From NCBI GenBank assembly GCA_964016885.1, contig OZ024743.1, positions 274,226,001 through 274,290,000 of the forward strand: a stretch of 64,000 nucleotides of DNA, given 5' to 3'. Source of the stretch: Eledone cirrhosa (lineage: Eukaryota). The notes under the pieces are model-generated. The model was given only the letters and a program-made list of their open reading frames with translations, did no database searches and was not told the origin of the DNA. This document shows, piece by piece, positions 53-63,929 of the stretch; position 1 is the stretch's first letter, and every line of letters begins with the position of its first letter. Position numbers and translations under genes: made by a program.

Positions 53-1363
53 TTATTTTGTTTGCCTGTATCTGTGTGCTGTGTCTAAAAAATGGTTGGG
101 GTAGAGGGGTTGTCTGCTGATGTTAAGTGGTCTCCTGTGTTTGTTATATTCCTTGTTGTTGTAAAATGTGGTTCGGGTTGGTGGTTGTAGATTGAATGGG
201 GTGTTCCTGTACTGCGAGTATGGGTGTGTGTTTCTATGTGCCATGTTGTATTGTGGTGTTATAAGTGGCCTACGTTGTTGGTTGTATCGTGTGGTGTGGG
301 TTTGTTGTGTATTGTGGAAGTGAGAGTTGAGAAAATGGTAATTACCTTGCTGTCCCCTTGAGGCGGGGAAGTTGTTGCATCTATCATGGCGGTGGTATCT
401 TTTCCCTATGTTTGACGATGAGGAATCCGCGTAGTAGTTGAGTGATTTGGTATGGTGTCTCCTTGAAGGGGGAAAGTTGTAAATGTCATTCTGGCGGAGA
501 TGATTTCTTGGGTTTTTGTTCCTTCTTATGGTAGCGAGGTTGGGAAGTTCATCTTCGGTGTGGTGCTTCCTTCTTCGTTTGTTTGAGGCTTGGGGGTTTG
601 AGAAGTTGTTGTGCGGTTCAGTTATGGGTTTTCCTATTTTTATGAACGGGTTATTGGAGGTGTAATCCGTTTGAAAAGTCGATTCATAGTGTAGGAACCA
701 AGCGGCACTTTTTTCCCAGCGTTGAAGGGATTTCAGTTCTTCTCTGTTGCAGTCCCCTTTCCATAATTTGGAGATCTTCTCTACCTTGGGGCCTTCAGTT
801 TTGTTGTTGATTTCCAGGAGGATCTCTTCATCGATGGTTTTGATTTTTTCCTCATTTGTCTGGGCCCTCAGTTTAAGAAGTTCAATTTCTGTCTTCATTT
901 TTTCCAATGCCATTCTTTCCCTAAGGTGTCTTTGAGGTTCGGGTTCATTTGGAATGGACTTTATTTGTAGTTTACGGGGGAGAGTTAGAGGGGTTGAGTT
1001 AAGCCATTTTTCATATATCTCTGCTTTGTTGTGATTTTGTATCATCTTCCAGAATGAGAACTTTCTGTCTCTGAGGGATTTGTTCCATTTTGGAATTGTT
1101 CGAATTTTCATTTTGTGTGAATCAATCTCACATGGTTCTTCGTTGGTTTTTCCTGGGTTGGTAGTAGTGAACATAGTTTGGATAGTATCGCAAAGGTTTT
1201 GGAGTTTGTCGCCGATTTCGGAGGGTTTGTATCCGGTGGCGGTTTCCTTATTTGTGGAGTCAAGTTTGTCGACCAGCAAAGATAGGTTGGTGTTGATTTT
1301 CTTGAGTTCCTGTAGGATCTCTTCATTTGAGTTGATGAGGGTTGTATCCGTTTTTGTTGGCAT
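53..1363 (-). CDS. Retroelement ORF1-like protein (coiled-coil N-terminal half; basic, N/H/R/Y-rich low-complexity C-terminal half), 436 aa from the first ATG
   Basis: The longest ORF in the window and the only long uninterrupted non-microsatellite one. ATG at 1363 (MPTKTDTT...). Heptad-like segments EEILQELKKINTNLSLLVDKL and ALEKMKTEIELLKLRAQTNEEKIKTIDEEI. A/C-rich coding strand typical of retroelements. Confidence 0.7.
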   Translation of the reverse strand: MPTKTDTTLINSNEEILQELKKINTNLSLLVDKLDSTNKETATGYKPSEIGDKLQNLCDTIQTMFTTTNPGKTNEEPCEIDSHKMKIRTIPKWNKSLRDRKFSFWKMIQNHNKAEIYEKWLNSTPLTLPRKLQIKSIPNEPEPQRHLRERMALEKMKTEIELLKLRAQTNEEKIKTIDEEILLEINNKTEGPKVEKISKLWKGDCNREELKSLQRWEKSAAWFLHYESTFQTDYTSNNPFIKIGKPITEPHNNFSNPQASNKRRRKHHTEDELPNLATIRRNKNPRNHLRQNDIYNFPPSRRHHTKSLNYYADSSSSNIGKRYHRHDRCNNFPASRGQQGNYHFLNSHFHNTQQTHTTRYNQQRRPLITPQYNMAHRNTHPYSQYRNTPFNLQPPTRTTFYNNKEYNKHRRPLNISRQPLYPNHFLDTAHRYRQTK

Positions 1364-2001: not shown

Positions 2002-2040
2002 GTATATAAATATATATATATATATTTATATATATATAAG
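1682..2040. repeat. (TA)n / (TATG)n compound microsatellite
   Basis: Direct inspection. Confidence 0.98.
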
Positions 2041-2700
2041 TATGTACACATACATACATATATGTATACAGACGTACAGTAGTATGTATATATATATACA
2101 TACACGCACACATATATATATGTACGTATGGATTCACCGAACATTTATTATAATGCTCAGTGTGTTTGTAAACAAACACCCCGTATTAAGCCGCAGTGTC
2201 CAGCAACCACCGTTGCTCGTTTGTTCAACACTGACAAGGGAACGCTGTACTAGTTTCAAGCTTATTAGCTATCGTCAGCAACGTATACCTTCCTGCCAGA
2301 ATGTTGAACGTATATACTTACCTCATGCATATTAACGGCTGAGTAGCCCAATTTGCATATCGAGTGGGTTAATCGGCCGGGTGCACCGAAAACGATAAAC
2401 GGAAAAAATGAAACGAAATTTCATTTCCCACTCTTAGTACGGCTGTTACTTAAATATAACTATGTACACGTACATACATATATGTATACAGACGTACAGT
2501 AGTATGTATATATATATACATACACGCACACATATATATATGTACGTATGGATTCACCTAACATTTATTATAATGCTCGGTGTGTTTGTAAACAAACATC
2601 CCGTATTAAGCCATAGTGTCGAGCAACCATCGTTGCTCGTTTGTTCAACACTGACAAAGGAACGCTGTACTAGTTTAAAGTTTATTAGCTATCGTTGCTG
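2041..2700 (-). mobile_element. Family A HHR-bearing repeat, about 1.6 head-to-tail units, 420-nt period (retrozyme or PLE pseudo-LTR-like)
   Basis: 2041 tatgtacacatacatacatatatgtatacagacgtacag recurs at 2461. Homologous to 15355-15772, 48657-49897 and 62808-63425. Confidence 0.85.
2243..2283 (-). ncRNA. Minimal type I hammerhead ribozyme (family A)
   Basis: Minus strand: CGTTG-CTGACGA-tAGCT aata AGCTt-GAAA-CTAG-TA-CAGCG. Canonical core, palindromic stem III ACTAGT, GUA cleavage triplet. Confidence 0.85.
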
Positions 2701-14967: not shown

Positions 14968-15318
<351 letters not shown>

Positions 15319-15319
15319 G

Positions 15320-15354
<35 letters not shown>

Positions 15355-15355
<1 letters not shown>

Positions 15356-15772
15356 AGTATGTATATGTACATACATATATGTATACAGACGTACAGTAGT
15401 ATGTATATATATATATACATACATGTACGTATGTGTTTACCGAACATTTATTATAATGTTCGGTTTGTTTGTAAACAAACAGCCCGAATTAAGCCGTACA
15501 GTGTTCGGCAACCATTGTCGCCCTTTTGTTCAACACTGACAAAGGAACGATGAACTAGTTTCAAGCTTATTAGCTATCGTCAACATCGTATACCTTCCTG
15601 TCAGATTATTGAACGTTTGAAAGTATATACTTTCCTTATGCATATTAACGGCTGGGCAACCTAATTTGAATATCGAGTACGTTAGTCGGCCGGGCGTACC
15701 GAGAACGATAAATGAAATAGAATGAAATGAAATTTCATTTCTCACTTTTAGTACGGCTGATACTTAAATATA
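15355..15772 (-). mobile_element. Family A single unit; HHR at 15548-15588 with a C3U lesion
   Basis: Homologous to 2041-2460. HHR reads CGATG-TTGACGA-...-GAAA-CTAG-TT-CATCG. Confidence 0.85.
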
Positions 15773-16095
15773 TAGTATTTTACATTAGAGCAAAACTAGT
15801 TTAGTTTATTTTATTAAAAGTTGTAAGTCTAAATTTAAACCTCCAAATAATTCTAAATTTATGAAAATTTCACGAGAGTTTACAAAAGAATAACCACTTA
15901 GTTATATTATAAAAACAGTAAGGAGGTGTAAAGGAAGTTAGAAGTGATATATGTTATAAAGTTAAAAAGTTTTAAAAAAAATTATTTTAAGAATATAATT
16001 AAAACATGATCCATATGCTATTTTATACGAAGTCATAAATTTACTTGCTATAAAGTTAAAACATTAACATTGAAATTAAAACATTAAAGGATACA

Positions 16096-29021: not shown

Positions 29022-29098
<77 letters not shown>

Positions 29099-29319
29099 AA
29101 TTAAGTTAAAAGTGTACATCCACATATGTATACTGAAATACTAGTATGCATATAAATACACACACGTATACATATGTACATGTACCGAGTTTTTCACTGG
29201 ACACTTTACTGTGAGTGTCCAGCTAGTCTGTATGTAACCAAACAGACAAACCGGTTTTTAGTGTCATACGGGTTTTCAAGGAAACACCTTTCCTCTATTC
29301 TCCAGAGAGCCAGACAGGA

Positions 29320-29362
29320 ATATTGGACTAGTTTCGATGTTATTACATCTCATCAGCAATAT
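29320..29362 (-). ncRNA. Minimal type I hammerhead ribozyme (family B)
   Basis: ATATTG-CTGATGA-GATGT aata ACATC-GAAA-CTAG-TC-CAATAT. All stems perfect, GUC triplet. Confidence 0.92.
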
Positions 29363-29699
29363 ATACCCATCTTCCGGCTTCTCTAGAGAATCGTAAAAGC
29401 ATATATCGTTATATGCTTTTTCTATGAAAATTAGTAGTGGGCAGACTAATTTGCATAGAACGTGAGTACGCACCGGTTCAGCGGAAACGATAAAAACAAA
29501 TAACGAAACGAAATTAAATTTCGTTTCGTTTGTAACTCACTTTTGTATGACTGACGCTTAAACAATTAAGTTAAAAGTGTACATCCACATATGTATCACG
29601 TTCTATGCAAATTAGTCTGCCCACTACTAATTTTCATAGAAAAAAGCATATAACGATATATGCTTTTACGATTCTCTAGAGAAGCCGGAAGATGGGTGT

Positions 29700-29742
29700 A
29701 TATTGCTGATGAGATGTAATAACATCGAAACTAGTCCAATAT
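29700..29742 (+). ncRNA. Minimal type I hammerhead ribozyme (family B, inverted copy)
   Basis: atattgctgatgagatgtaataacatcgaaactagtccaatat, read directly on the plus strand. Confidence 0.92.
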
Positions 29743-30030
29743 TCCTGTCTGGCTCTCTGGAGAATAGAGGAAAGGTGTTTCCTTGAAAACCCGTATGACT
29801 CTAAAAACCGGTTTGTCTGTTTGGTTACATACAGACTAGCTGGACACTCACAGTAAAGTGTCCAGTGAAAAACTCGGTACATGTACATATGTATACGTGT
29901 GTGTATTTATATGCATACTAGTATTTCAGTATACATATGTGGATGTACACTTTTAACTTAATTGTTTCAGCGTCAGTCATACAAAAGTGAGTTACAAACG
30001 AAACGAAATTTAATTTCGTTTCGTTATTTG

Positions 30031-30118
<88 letters not shown>

Positions 30119-30381: not shown

Positions 30382-30448
<67 letters not shown>

Positions 30449-30451
<3 letters not shown>

Positions 30452-31169
30452 AGAGTATTGAAGTTTGCTTGAACCATTGTGGAACAATAAGTAAATATTT
30501 ATAAGTCGTTTGGAAGCCTCGACAATGCAAATGGGTAAATCTCCGGGTAACAAGGTCCGGTGGTGGAGAGAGAGATATGTAAGTGGGTGTACGTTGAGAT
30601 GCGTGGTGTGTATAAGATGTGTGAGATGTGTAGAATGAAGGGAAGAGTAAAAGAGTAAAAATAATAATAACAACACAAGAGAGAGAGTTACCTTGGGAGA
30701 GATTTAATAGTCCCTATATATTTCGGATTCACATCCATCAACTGGGGGTTTTTTCCGGGGTGGGGGAAAAGTTTGTCTGTCGGACAACTCGGAACGCGTC
30801 TTTCGCTGTTTGTTGATTTGAATATCAGATATTCAATATCAGATATTCAAATCAACAAACAGCGAAAGACGCGTTCCGAGCTGTCCGACAGACAACCTTT
30901 TCCCCCACCCCGGAAAAAAACCCCAGTCGATGGATGTGAATCCGAAATATATAGGGACTATTAAATCTCTCCCAAGGTAACTCTCTTTCTTGTGTTGTTA
31001 TTATTATTTTTACCCTTTTACTCTTCCCTTCATTCTACACATCTCACACATCTTATACACACCACGCATCTCAACGTACACCCACTTACATATCTCTCTC
31101 TCCACCACCGGACCGTGTTACCCGGAGATTTACCCATTTGCATTGTCGAGGCTTCCAAACGACTTATAA

Positions 31170-31172
<3 letters not shown>
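30449..31172. mobile_element. Family C near-perfect palindromic element, about 700 bp
   Basis: Arms about 30494-30826 and about 30842-31172 are inverted around the centre aatatcagatattc. Homologous to 46708-47382. Confidence 0.9.
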
Positions 31173-31254
<82 letters not shown>

Positions 31255-42071: not shown

Positions 42072-42690
42072 CTACCCCCCCCCCCCCGGGTCATTATGGG
42101 GTTTGAGGGCGAGGTAAGTCCTACGCAATCTATGTTTACATGCAGTAACCAGTTCATCTTTCTTGTTTAGGAGTTGGTCCGTCGAAAACAGCATTTGTAA
42201 AGTTTCCTCCGAGCATAAATTGCACGGACGGCGTCCTCCCGTGTAAGAATTGGCTCTGGACAGTAATCTCCAAGTGAGATCATAGGTGATGTTGTTGTCC
42301 TTGAGGTCCCATATGTGGCCCGAAAGTGTAGTGGCGTGACGCCGGGCCGGGTTTCGGAAGGTATGTCTATGTTGGTATAGCCGGGTCTTGAAGTCACATG
42401 CGGTAAGTCCTATATAGGCTTTGTTGGAGGTATCCGTCCTCACGTTGCACTGGTAGATCACATTACGGTCTCTGCATCTATTGTCTAGTGGGCAAATAGA
42501 TCTATCCGGGCAGTTACACCTCCTGGTCGGTTCTCCACTGCTATTTAGGTTATTTCTGCCATCGGGGTTGAGTTTTTTGTTGTTAGAGGAGACGATGTTT
42601 TGTGCGAAGTTTGGTGTAGTGCTGTAAGAGAGTTTGATGGTATTTTTGTTAATTATGTTGTGGTAGCGGTGTTGTAATGGGAAGTGAAAA
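42072..42690 (-). CDS. PLE C-terminal Cys-rich linker plus GIY-YIG endonuclease (5'-truncated, frame intact)
   Basis: TIKLSYSTTPN...CNCPDRSICPLDNRC...VIYQCNV...YIGLTACDFKTRLYQHRHTF...TTLSGHIWDLK...CNLCSEE...LLNKKDELVTACKH. Confidence 0.9.
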
Positions 42691-42860
42691 ACACTTCCCA
42701 TTACAACACCGCTACCACAACATAATTAACAAAAATACCATCAATTATATTGCGTTTATTAGTTGGTGATGCGCGTTTTGCTATTAATAGGCTCATGGTT
42801 CGATCTGTATCGATCTGGCCCAACTCAGCTTGTCGGACCTCGGTTGTAGCAATGACAGAA

Positions 42861-46657: not shown

Positions 46658-46707
<50 letters not shown>

Positions 46708-46710
<3 letters not shown>

Positions 46711-47379
46711 TAAATTTCTTTAAGTCGTTTGGAAGCCTCGACAATGCAAATGGGTAAATCTCCGGGTAACAAGATCCGGTGGTGGAGAGAGAGATGTAAG
46801 TGGGTGTACGTTGAGATGCGTGGCGTGTATAAGACGTGTAGAGGAATGAAGGAAAGAGTATAAAGGATAAAATTAAAATAACAACACGAGAGAGAGTTAC
46901 CTTGGGAGAGATTTAATTGTCCCTATATATTTCGGATTCTAATCCAAAACTGTGGGTTTTTTCCGGGGTGGGGGAAAGGTGCGAAACGCGTCCTCCGCTG
47001 TTCGTTGTTTTGAAGATATTCAAAACAACGAACAGCGGAGGACGCGTTTCGCACCTTTCCGACAGACCTCCTTTCCCCCACCCCGGAAAAAGACCCCAGT
47101 TTTGGATGTGAATCCGAAATATATAGGGACAATTAAATCTCTCCCAAGGTAACTCTCTCTCGTGTTGTTATTTTTATTTTATCCTTTATGCTCTTTCCTT
47201 CATTGCTTTACACGTCTTATACACGCCACGCATCTCAACATACACCCACTTACATCTCTCTCTCCACCACCGGATCTTGTTACCCGGAGATTTACCCATT
47301 TGCATTGTCGAGGCTTCCAAACGACATAAAGAAATTTACCTTATTATTCCACAATGCTTCAAGCAAACTTCAATACTCT

Positions 47380-47382
<3 letters not shown>
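46708..47382. mobile_element. Family C palindromic element, second copy
   Basis: Arms about 46708-47013 and about 47019-47340 are inverted, with a 17-nt indel between arms. Clearly similar to 30449-31172. Confidence 0.9.
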
Positions 47383-47424
<42 letters not shown>

Positions 47425-48117: not shown

Positions 48118-48772
48118 AGGTACGTGTGTAGGCAATGTTTATGTACGTATGTGTTCGTATGTGTGTGTGGACATGAGTGAGTTTACGTTTGTGTATATAT
48201 GTGCGTGTATGGATGTATGTGTGTGTGTATATATATGTATATATATACATATAGTTATGTAATGAACAACATAGGATAATTATTTCATTCACCAGTGGTT
48301 TCTTGAAAGCAAACGATATTTACTTTTATTCATGAGAATGAAAAAATCCTAGGTGTGTATATGTATGTGTGTATGTACATGTGCGTATATATGTATGTAT
48401 CTGAATGTATGTGTGTATGTATATATGCGTGTGTATGATCGTGTGTATGAGCGTGTGTATATATATATATTTAAATGTATAGAAGGTTGGCCGTATATGT
48501 GTGTGCGCGCATGTGTATGTATATATGTGTACGTTTGAATATGACATGCTTACCCAATTGATACAGAACAGCCAGAAGGCTCGTGGCGGCATGTATCAAC
48601 AAGTGTGTGTGACTGGGTCTATGGGAGAGGGGGGAGTGGGTGTGTGAGTATATATATAAGTTGAAATAAAATGAAAAGGAAATTTCATTTCACACACTTA
48701 GTACGGCACTTACTTAAATGTAAGTATGTGTGTATACGTACATACATATATGTATACAGACGTACAGTAGCA

Positions 48773-48898
<126 letters not shown>

Positions 48899-49051
48899 CA
48901 GGTACACATACATATATGCACGTATTAGTTTAGCGGACGCTTATTATAACTCCGCTTTGCTCGTTTGTAAACAAACTGAACAGCCTGAATTTTTATGCCG
49001 TATGGTGTTAAGGCAACCACGTCACCTTTTTGTTCAACACTGACACAGGAA

Positions 49052-49092
49052 CGATGTACTAGTTTCAAGCTTGTTAGCTATCATCAGCACCG
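49052..49092 (-). ncRNA. Minimal type I hammerhead ribozyme (family A')
   Basis: CGGTG-CTGATGA-tAGCT aaca AGCTt-GAAA-CTAG-TA-CATCG. Confidence 0.87.
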
Positions 49093-49329
49093 TATACCCA
49101 TCTGCCAGATAGTTGAACGTTCGAAAGTATATACTTTCCTTATGAAAATTAACGGCTGAGCAGCCTAATTTGCATATCGAGTGAGCTAAGTCGGTCAGAC
49201 ATACCGAAAATGATAAGTTGAAATAAAATGAAAACGAAATTTCATTTCTCACTCTTAGTACGGCACTTACTTAAATGTAAGTATGTGTGTATACGTACAT
49301 ACATATATGTATACAGACGTACAGTAGCA

Positions 49330-49391
<62 letters not shown>

Positions 49392-49392
49392 C

Positions 49393-49475
<83 letters not shown>

Positions 49476-49628
49476 CAGGTACACATACATATATGTACCT
49501 ATCAGTTTAGCGGACGCTTATTATAACGCCGCTTTGTTCGTTTGTAAACAAACTGAACAGCCTGAATTTTTATGCCGTACGGTGTTAAGGCAACCACGTC
49601 ACCTTTTTGTTCAACTCTCACACAGGAA

Positions 49629-49669
49629 CGATGTACTAGTTTCAAGCTTGTTAGCTATCATCAGCACCG
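49629..49669 (-). ncRNA. Minimal type I hammerhead ribozyme (family A', second unit)
   Basis: Identical to 49052-49092, 577 nt away. Confidence 0.87.
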
Positions 49670-50334
49670 TATACCCATCTGCCAGATAGTTGAACGTTCG
49701 AAAGTATATACTTTCCTTATGAAAATTAACGGCTGAGCAGCCTAATTTGCATATCGAGTGAGCTAAGTCGGTCAGGCATACCGAAAACGATAAGTTGAAA
49801 TAAAATGAAAACGAAATTTCATTTCTCACTCTTAGTACGGCACTTACTTAAATGTAAGTATGTGTGTATACGTACATACATATATGTATACAGACGTATA
49901 TATATATATAGACGTATATATATATATATAAGGAAACACGGAAGACACAAAGACAATGTCGTTTCCCGCTCAACGGCTATCTTCTGTGGATCATTATAGT
50001 TTCAAATATATAATGGCTGATTAAAAACCCACGAGCTTTTCTCTTGAAAATTGTATTCCGTTGTTTACTTTTCTTGTCCTCTTCTATCCTGTTTCTTTTA
50101 TTTCCCTATTTGTCATTCAATGAAAGACAAACGTCCGAAACTTTGAGACATTTTTCCTAATATATCAAGCATTAAACTTATACATATCATTATTGCATTG
50201 AATCGATCTCCTCTGTTGTTTTTCCTTGTTGAGTTTTCGCATATATATTTTTTTCCTGTGTGTTTACAGGGTCATACAGCAGAAACTCAACTCCAGAGTA
50301 ACAGGTTTCTGACTCAATTTTAATTAAACCTATA

Positions 50335-62807: not shown

Positions 62808-63425
62808 GAGCAACGATGGTTACTAGACACTGTACGGCTTAATTCGGGATGTTTGTTTACAAACACACCGAGCATTATAATAAATGTTCGCTGAATCGAT
62901 ATGTACATGTATATATGTGTGCATGTATGTATATATTATATATACATACTACTGTACGTCTGTATACATATATGTATGTACGTATACATACTTATATTTA
63001 AGTAACAGCCGTACTAAGAGTGAGAAAGGAAATTTCGTTTCATTTTTTCCGTTTATCGTTTTCGATACCCCGGCCGATTAACTCACTCGATATGCAAATT
63101 GGGCTGCTCAGCCGTTAATATGCATAAGGAAAGTACATACTTTCAGACGTTCAATCATCTGACAGGAAGGTATACGTTGCTGACGATAGCTAATAAGCCT
63201 GAAATTAGTACAGCGTTCCTTTGTCAGTGTTGAACAAACGAGCAACGATGGTTGCTAGACACTGTACGGTTTAATTCGGGTTGTTTGTTTACAAACACAC
63301 CGAGCATTATATTAAATGTTCGGTAAATCCATACGTACATGTATATATGTGTGCATGTATGTATATATATATATACATACTACTGTACGTCTGTATACAT
63401 ATATGTATGTACGTATACATACTTA
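62808..63425 (+). mobile_element. Family A repeat, about 1.4 units, 432-nt period
   Basis: gagcaacgatggtt.ctagacactgtacgg at 62808 and 63240. Reverse complement of 2041-2460. Confidence 0.88.
63175..63215 (+). ncRNA. Minimal type I hammerhead ribozyme (family A, slightly decayed)
   Basis: CGTTG-CTGACGA-tagct aata agcct-GAAA-TTAG-TA-CAGCG. Confidence 0.75.
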
Positions 63426-63929
63426 TATATATATATATATATACATACATATAAAGAGTGAGAGCGAGCGAGATGAAAAATGTTTAGAAACGGCAGTGTT
63501 CATCACGCATGTTGATTTATACATGCCTATGAACATAATTACGTGTGTGTGTATGTGAGTTTGTATGTTTCTATGCGATCGCATTAACATGGCCATCAAT
63601 ATGGTATTTAACTATGAAACCGGCAGAGCTGTTTCAACGAATATTATCTAAAAGGCAAATTGAAAGGATGTTGGATAAGTTTGTGTAGGACAGAGAAGGA
63701 GGAAATAATTGACTGTAAATGTATATCTCCTTTAGTTCTCACATCAGTAGTAATTAATTTAACTAACGGCAATTAGATTAATTTGCTCTAAACAGCTGTT
63801 CCAAGCTCACATTCACAACACGCTTCAACTTAAATGTTGATGAGAAAAGGATAAATCAGAGAAACCCTATGTCCGCCATTTATACTGATACGTTGTAAAC
63901 GAGGATTCAATTTTCAATAATGATAATAA

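Follow-up and report, generated by a model that had tools for sequence, protein, structure and literature searches.

The closest described systems are the non-LTR retrozymes of animals (Cervera and de la Pena 2020, PMC7229834; Li, Clavereau and Pollet 2026, 10.64898/2026.07.22.740005). As far as excerpts of these two sources and of PMC7761336 go, the published folds are single-sequence energy folds, the units range from 150 to 450 bp, and the repeats contain no conserved motif that would indicate the mobiliser (PMC7761336). No scaffold, covariation or pseudoknot is described for animal retrozymes in the literature as covered here, i.e. mostly titles and the beginnings of abstracts, exclusive of supplements and figures (S2-S7 of PMC7229834 may show similar topologies). 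The structure described below bears on how these repeats are recognised and copied.

According to excerpts of PMC11167929, PMC8557442 and PMC4209133, the pLTR or 'tail' elements of the Penelope group resemble the present repeats in having tandem as well as inverted copies truncated at the 5' end, (TA)n as target, two alternative 3' ends and a palindromic stem III suited to dimer cleavage. In the anole element Poseidon, the Penelope reverse transcriptase (RT) starts at two internal stem-loop sites and nicks both strands; in the excerpted text, this one in vitro study located the two start sites without a structural model (PMC11167929). A further hammerhead tandem repeat, newt satellite 2, has an internal promoter of the snRNA type (PMC2220036, citing Coats 1994, in excerpt).

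Unlike the published animal retrozymes (as excerpted), the repeats analysed here appear to share, between families that are 52-70% identical, a long-range helix that covaries, a candidate pseudoknot and two end sites fixed by the structure, while the A' and B units lie at or above the published size range. They differ from the pLTR elements in the same excerpts in lacking a reading frame and in having a canonical rather than a minimal hammerhead, and no autonomous element with the retrozyme repeat as its pLTR was found in the two families examined. Compared with Poseidon as excerpted, the spacing of the sites is 26-74 nt instead of 30-40, and the putative start sites lie on a multi-helix junction instead of one AC-rich stem-loop.

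The insertion and its repeat unit

The window (i.e. the whole stretch of 64,000 nucleotides that was analysed) belongs to a (TA)n-rich animal genome of 3.0 Gb. The hairpins flagged in the original prediction lie within a 943-bp insertion between two (TA)n tracts, which consists of two arms with hammerheads on opposite strands. The insertion and its relatives in the window are:

29095..29596, minus strand: left arm of the family B retrozyme insertion, about 1.07 units; its 3' end is end site 1, joined to (TA)n
29597..30037, plus strand: right arm, about 0.95 unit; its 3' end is end site 2, joined to (TA)n; own hammerhead at 29700-29742
2031..2695, minus strand: family A (A1) copy
15147..15778, minus strand: family A (A3) copy
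48656..49930, minus strand: tandem copies of family A' (A2)
62808..63453, plus strand: family A (A1) copy

All 13 arm pairs quoted in the original prediction are present in the window, those of B at 29197-29222, 29226-29247, 29395-29420 and 29502-29530 (mirrored in the right arm), and the A and A' strings in the copies around 2, 15, 49 and 63 kb, of which the one at 15 kb (subfamily A3) supplies some of the 'A' strings. The unit measures 465-471 nt in B, 422-430 in A and 456-577 in A'. Tandem and mirror-image arrays of the 465-471-nt unit occur throughout the genome, with arrays of at least 30 units on C1. Genome-wide, the octamer-plus-hammerhead pattern (A and B types) has 22,367 matches, B-type cores number 9,583, and the patterns led by the older family C and by the 310-nt family D have 482 and 18,220 matches, respectively; the reversed control gave 0 in each case, and all these figures are counts of motifs rather than of insertions.

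The region 29095-30037 contains no ATG-started frame of 100 amino acids, and the units are arranged head-to-tail without LTR-type organisation. Because it combines a type I hammerhead having a short palindromic stem III with tandem non-coding units, the element is, judged by its sequence, a non-LTR retrozyme. A new, older family C and a reduced, 310-nt family D share the predicted multibranch fold with A, A' and B.

Several other repeats were observed. Family D (L153-L182) forms very young 310-nt hammerhead arrays with head-to-head arms and a reduced scaffold, lacking the octamer. Eight near-identical C-like copies, approximately 45-120 kb apart, lie in G000:C1:143343535-143791155, which suggests a large segmental tandem duplication. 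Another two-armed palindromic (TA)n insertion occurs twice in the window (30409-31241 and 46661-47414), without a canonical hammerhead core.

The hammerhead ribozyme

29320..29362, minus strand: type I hammerhead, comprising stem I, CUGAUGA, stem II with a UAAUAA loop, GAAA, and a 2-bp stem III with palindromic ACUAGU

All canonical type I features are present (the CUGANGA and GAAA core, the NUH site and the short palindromic stem III), and cleavage is predicted after 29326. The match to Rfam HH9 (E 1.3e-6, 32.9 bits) is below the gathering score of 52; nothing in Rfam reached gathering level, and besides the hammerhead there were weak matches only. Stem I had been predicted to covary, which is borne out, and in the alignment of 42 copies stem II does so as well. 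The palindrome of stem III differs by family, being ACUAGU in A and B, ACAUGU in C and ACGCGU in D; for such a short palindromic design, a dimer is required for cutting according to the part of PMC4209133 consulted. No further family came out of a search for other stem III palindromes: matches that differ in the first base of stem III numbered just 61, and the control gave 13. At L123, L126, L129, L140, L141 and L149, hammerhead cores with the ACAUGU palindrome stand isolated in unrelated flanks, and these may be old remnants or candidate domesticated ribozymes.

The predicted fold

The elements predicted around the hammerhead, in window coordinates of the left arm, are:

29297..29391, minus strand: extended stem I (29366-29391 with 29297-29319), predicted to join both ends of the cut monomer
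29545..29552, minus strand: 3' strand of P3, a long-range helix of 8 bp
29262..29269, minus strand: 5' strand of P3, with one terminal mismatch here (the right-arm equivalent, 29793-29800, is intact)
29459..29542, minus strand: P9 domain, formed by strands 29535-29542 and 29459-29467; P10, end site 2 and P11 lie within it
29502..29530, minus strand: P10, hairpin 5 of the original prediction; length differs by family, missing in D
29490..29497, minus strand: end site 2, the U-rich linker 3' of P10; the right arm uses the equivalent at 30037
29557..29570, minus strand: P8, a small hairpin with end site 1; the end of the left arm falls in the following copy of P8, 29095-29107
29469..29483, minus strand: P11 hairpin, the loop of which (29472-29479) is a predicted pseudoknot partner
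29248..29255, minus strand: single-stranded linker in the multiloop of P3, predicted to form a pseudoknot with the P11 loop, to which it is complementary
29422..29458, minus strand: P12, hairpin 4 of the original prediction, with the octamer ATGCAAAT at 29449-29456; conserved in sequence, with zero compensatory double changes
29395..29420, minus strand: P13, hairpin 3
29278..29295, minus strand: P2, a strongly covarying hairpin absent from the original list
29226..29247, minus strand: P5, hairpin 2
29197..29222, minus strand: P6, hairpin 1
29113..29186, minus strand: P7, a long AU-rich hairpin of variable length, with approximate limits; outside the covariation tests

When 12 natural monomers were folded as circles, A1, A' and B had one topology on the hammerhead strand, whereas that of an A3 copy was partly different and that of D was a reduced version, which keeps P2, P3, P9 and P11. 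The order is extended stem I, P2, the P3 multiloop (with the linker, hairpins 2 and 1, P7 and P8), the P9 multiloop (with hairpin 5, the U-rich linker and P11), hairpin 4 and hairpin 3. On the hammerhead strand the flagged stretch has a folding z-score of -10.1, and on the opposite strand one of -7.8, 0 of 100 shuffles being as good on either, and circular folds of A and B have z-scores of -7 to -14 on the hammerhead strand (12 shuffles each).

The shared order of hairpins holds as originally proposed (1-2-hammerhead-3-4-5), except that this order was given on the antisense strand, because the hammerhead at 29320-29362 lies on the minus strand. Of the proposed conserved structured non-coding RNA of about 450 nt, larger than the hammerhead itself, the part that stands, at the level of helices, is structured RNA beyond the hammerhead; as a stand-alone non-coding RNA it does not, being the body of a retrozyme. 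A conserved RNA scaffold (P3 and the overall fold, within a known class of element) is very probably real.

Covariation of the helices

Covariation was assessed on a sequence-only alignment of 42 natural copies, with family consensuses 52-97% identical; 23 of 65 segments stayed unaligned, namely all of those from loci of the search for other palindromes (chosen for mutated cores) and two atypical ones. Copy B1_L002, the upstream part of which is an inversion junction, was included in RNAalifold, whole-structure and fixed-column pseudoknot scoring and excluded from the other tests.

From this alignment, RNAalifold recovers P3 together with hammerhead stems I and II. P3 is Watson-Crick in 8 of 8 pairs in the consensuses of A1b, A3, A2a, A2b, B1, B2/3 and C as well as in D, its arms being AGCCGUAC/GUACGGCU in A1b and A3, UGCCGUAC/GUACGGCA in A2b, UGCCAUAC/GUAUGGCA in A2a, AGUCAUAC/GUAUGACU in B, AGCUGUGC/GCACAGCU in C and AUCGCUAU/AUAGCGAU in D. 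Among A, B and C this amounts to six compensatory double changes and zero broken pairs; A1a has a 2-nt deletion beside P3 and keeps 7-8 of its pairs. There are 190 six-pair registers in the reference, of which two are unbroken in all 8 lineages, and both of these are P3, with four double-changed states each. Shuffles that move whole columns, so that relatedness is retained, reached four double changes in an unbroken register in 0 of 3,000 cases, and in 8 of 3,000 when one broken state was allowed.

Template-switch copying during reverse transcription or replication can perfect inverted repeats, and matched changes might in that case have arisen from quasi-palindromes instead of from selection on an RNA fold. 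The perfect Watson-Crick pairing of P3 and several hairpins fits such an origin, as do P7, P10 and P13, which are A/T-rich palindromes of variable length. The arms of P3 are however approximately 170-225 nt apart in the monomer and its pairs change one at a time, while elsewhere G-U pairs persist or serve as intermediates: in the extended stem I, one pair is G-C in B1, G-U in B2 and A-U in B3, and another stem pair is G-U in A1/A2, A-U in A3 and G-C in C. Since the loop-linker match described below is, moreover, not a nested inverted repeat, we consider template switching a very improbable source of the matched changes, and selection on the RNA fold is the reading followed here.

The hairpins of the original prediction, presented there as a covarying scaffold, fare differently. 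Pairs changed on both sides number 6 of 10 in hairpin 1 and 3 of 6 in hairpin 2, where the claim holds; in hairpins 3 (1 of 6) and 5 (1 of 8) the result is ambiguous owing to variable length and alignment, and hairpin 4 (0 of 14) is conserved rather than covarying. Three helices absent from that list have 5 of 8 (P3), 4 of 6 (P2) and 3 of 7 (P9). For P9, P10, P13 and the outer stem I, A can be aligned with B in more than one way; between the B subfamilies, which are 93-97% identical and unambiguously aligned, P11, P2 and hairpin 1 each have one double change. A B3-like copy (L097), in which P2 and hairpin 1 carry compensatory changes of their own, probably represents a further subfamily.

When the structure of one family was scored in another, outside the hammerhead core (with the extended stem I counted as outside), there were fewer broken pairs than in shuffles in 17 of 19 non-independent comparisons (p<0.02), a measure that partly reflects plain conservation, and double changes exceeded shuffles in 11 of the 19 (p<0.05). 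For the named structure as a whole, 86.9% of cells are paired with a covariation of 0.237, against 81.0% and 0.146 after shuffling and at most 41% and 0.062 after sliding; its count of further pair types was not above that of the shuffles. In a tree-based, R-scape-like test, no pair reached E<0.05, the best being a P3 pair at 0.078 and the best hammerhead pair being at 0.27, while 5 of 82 non-hammerhead pairs exceeded the 99th percentile of the null. This per-pair test lacks power, because the stems of the hammerhead itself also fail in it, there being too few independent lineages. With regard to significant covariation outside the hammerhead, on which the original prediction hinged, no single pair reaches significance (hammerhead pairs included); at the level of the helix, P3 was matched by 0 of the 3,000 shuffles.

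The loop of P11 and the P3 linker

The loop of P11 is complementary to the unpaired linker in the P3 multiloop, a match that was noticed post hoc while reading the alignment. The loop and linker read GCCCG/CGGGC in A3, GCCUG/CAGGC in A', AACCGGU/ACCGGUU in B, GGCC/GGCC or ACGGUC/GACCGU in C, and GGACC/GGUCU in D. The cognate assignment of loops to linkers ranked 1 of 120 on lineage means of five lineages, and over 6,480 choices of representatives it was first in 3,942, with 7th as its lowest rank. One of 806 random couples of segments reached the same bar. With columns fixed, pairing is seen in 77.8% of loop-linker cells, and both partners vary in 4 of the 5 pairs. In A3, A', B2 and D, no other part of the monomer matches the P11 loop better than the linker does (three further trials used mis-picked or mutated loops), whereas in the abundant A1 the pairing extends over only 4-5 bp, and in C the register is shifted. 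A pseudoknot between the P11 loop and the linker is probable.

Strand preference and the octamer

The hairpins could be DNA palindromes of an internal promoter, or reflect mere shared ancestry, with the hammerhead as the sole functional RNA structure. The octamer ATGCAAAT lends itself to this reading: in families that were found without requiring it, it is exact in 12 of 17 copies of C, 31 of 35 of B1 and 8 of 8 of B2, while the strand with which it pairs varies between families. Because it is kept while its partner changes, the octamer reads as a sequence signal. Newt satellite 2 is a hammerhead tandem repeat as well, and its snRNA-type promoter contains an octamer; unlike in that satellite, no proximal sequence element was identified here, the promoter role is putative, and family D is abundant without any octamer. 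A promoter palindrome would, however, account for hairpin 4 only, and family D keeps P2, P3, P9 and P11 without it.

Further signatures of RNA are the long-range helices P3 and P9 and a G-U bias, internal G-U against A-C pairs on the hammerhead strand being 14:3 (p 0.013) in those helices that are predicted on both strands; two cruder tests of strand bias were non-significant (63:54 and 7:5). In monomers of A and B the energy is lower on the hammerhead strand in 9 of 9 cases, and the z-score also in 8 of 9; in family D, 3 of 3 monomers have the lower energy on the antisense strand. We regard it as very improbable that promoter DNA or ancestry explains the hairpins, and a functional RNA fold remains the preferred reading.

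Rare changes in inserted B1 copies (69 on 240 and 41 on 121 sites) affect paired and unpaired sites alike. Inserted copies thus decay regardless of pairing, and therefore the constraint acts on the propagating lineages, not on the inserted DNA.

An excess of A>G over T>C on the hammerhead strand was observed in B3 copies (L082, L093-L101; 16:5, p 0.027), which is possibly due to RNA editing; B1 has no such excess (12:10), and six sets together gave 36:19. Editing scars were set aside as support for the fold, given the B1 ratio and the fact that paired sites were not preferred.

Ends of the copies

The last copies of arrays end at two places, i.e. in P8 just 5' of the P3 3' strand (site 1), and in the U-rich linker that follows hairpin 5, immediately 5' of P11 (site 2). 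Ends at these sites make up 21 of 22 in B1, 1 of 1 in B2, 8 of 8 in B3, 6 of 6 in D, 10 of 12 in A2 (A'), 24 of 36 in A3 and 8 of 19 in C, the remainder being mostly unmapped (many A3 and C) and A1 being left out of the counts; exact ends blur a few bases into (TA)n. Where both arms were mapped, 12 of 13 insertions pair one site-1 end with one site-2 end, as does the 943-bp insertion. The spacing of the two sites is approximately 69-74 nt in B, 59 in A', 51 in A3 and 26 in D, and tracks the size of hairpin 5 (which D lacks), while in every family the sites flank the P3 3' strand and the P9 5' strand. Because the sites bracket the P3/P9 junction while their spacing ranges from 26 to 74 nt, it seems that structure rather than distance places the ends.

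The main alternative is that selection on the fold concerns no more than the folding of the hammerhead, ligation and a stable circle, and that A/U microhomology to the nicked (TA)n target together with accessibility, instead of RT recognition of P3/P9, determines the ends. Both sites indeed have A/U-rich microhomology to (TA)n, ending in short A/U runs that blend into it; for published retrozyme circles of animals, a high degree of self-pairing is predicted (PMC7229834, in excerpt), and no structure shared with the retrozymes was found in the two Penelope-like families examined. On the other hand, P7 and other A/U runs offer more microhomology, and yet the ends of B and D fall almost only at the two sites, which moreover keep their place in the fold while the spacing shifts and are used as a pair in 12 of 13 insertions. 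We therefore find it rather unlikely that microhomology and accessibility set the ends.

On balance we lean towards a role of the fold both in clamping the ends of the cut unit for circularisation and in positioning a Penelope-type RT at two start sites. The fold likely tells such an RT where to start, because the long-range helix and the likely pseudoknot lie between and beside the two end points. The suggestion of RT recognition in the original prediction gains support from the copy ends in this way, and remains a proposal. In cut monomers, both end sites lie 5' of the octamer and the hammerhead core; because the arms contain these two and cross the cut site, the template would be a circle or an uncut multimer.

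In such a cycle, tandem arrays would be transcribed, perhaps from the octamer as a DNA signal, and the hammerheads would cut as dimers, after which the long extended stem I could hold the ends of the monomer together for ligation and the single hammerhead in the monomer circle would stay quiet. The P3 and P9 helices, tied by the predicted loop-linker pseudoknot, would offer a Penelope RT-endonuclease the two A/U-rich start sites, and this enzyme would nick both strands of a (TA)n target, each site priming one arm on a circle or uncut multimer as RT template. Selection would then act on those RNAs that get copied.

More specifically, P3, P9 and the loop-linker knot might constitute a defined, pseudoknotted docking and initiation platform for a Penelope RT that sets both starts of the two-armed insertion, which we put forward as a tentative possibility. 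Penelope RTs are the closest relatives of telomerase RT. If true, the platform would be a minimal natural model of a pseudoknot that places an RT of the telomerase-RT lineage on an internal template. Ready disrupt-and-rescue mutants follow from a fold that is preserved between families of 52-70% identity, has compensatory variants in nature and carries two putative start sites fixed to it; they bear on the features recognised by a Penelope RT and on how the circle is closed.

Penelope-like elements

The hallmarks of mobilisation by Penelope are present, i.e. tandem and inverted insertions, (TA)n targets and two alternative 3' ends. At the left edge of the window, a young Penelope-like element (53-1363, minus strand, continuing in L031:7283-9622, minus strand) was observed in two frames, an N-terminal frame followed by RT and, at the C terminus, GIY-YIG with a Cys-rich linker, and from these features we take it to be Neptune-like. 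Its family has at least 150 copies that are 99-100% identical over the endonuclease part, and two 3' ends approximately 40 nt apart, in (TA)n. The possibility that family A is the pLTR of this element was ruled out, its own terminal repeat being a different sequence.

Both this family and a second one (below) have terminal repeats of their own, and 1.4 kb of 3' sequence from either contains neither the scaffold nor a canonical hammerhead. The likeness of retrozyme end sites to those of Penelope-like families is weak or marginal (best p 0.003 and 0.005 among 32 tests), and Penelope fragments near 210 retrozyme loci have no fixed position.

The second young Penelope-like family (window 42072-42701, minus strand; L243-L272) has an RT approximately 20% identical to the first and two 3' ends approximately 80 nt apart, in (TA)n. 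Family E (CUGAUGA...GAAACAGUUC), a hammerhead family with a different flank, was seen at L031:4760-5010, L010, L014, L065, L099 and L102. Near the 3' end of the second Penelope-like family, GAAA precedes a CUGA-like block, possibly a scrambled hammerhead, and by eye its tail resembles the 3' part of family E.
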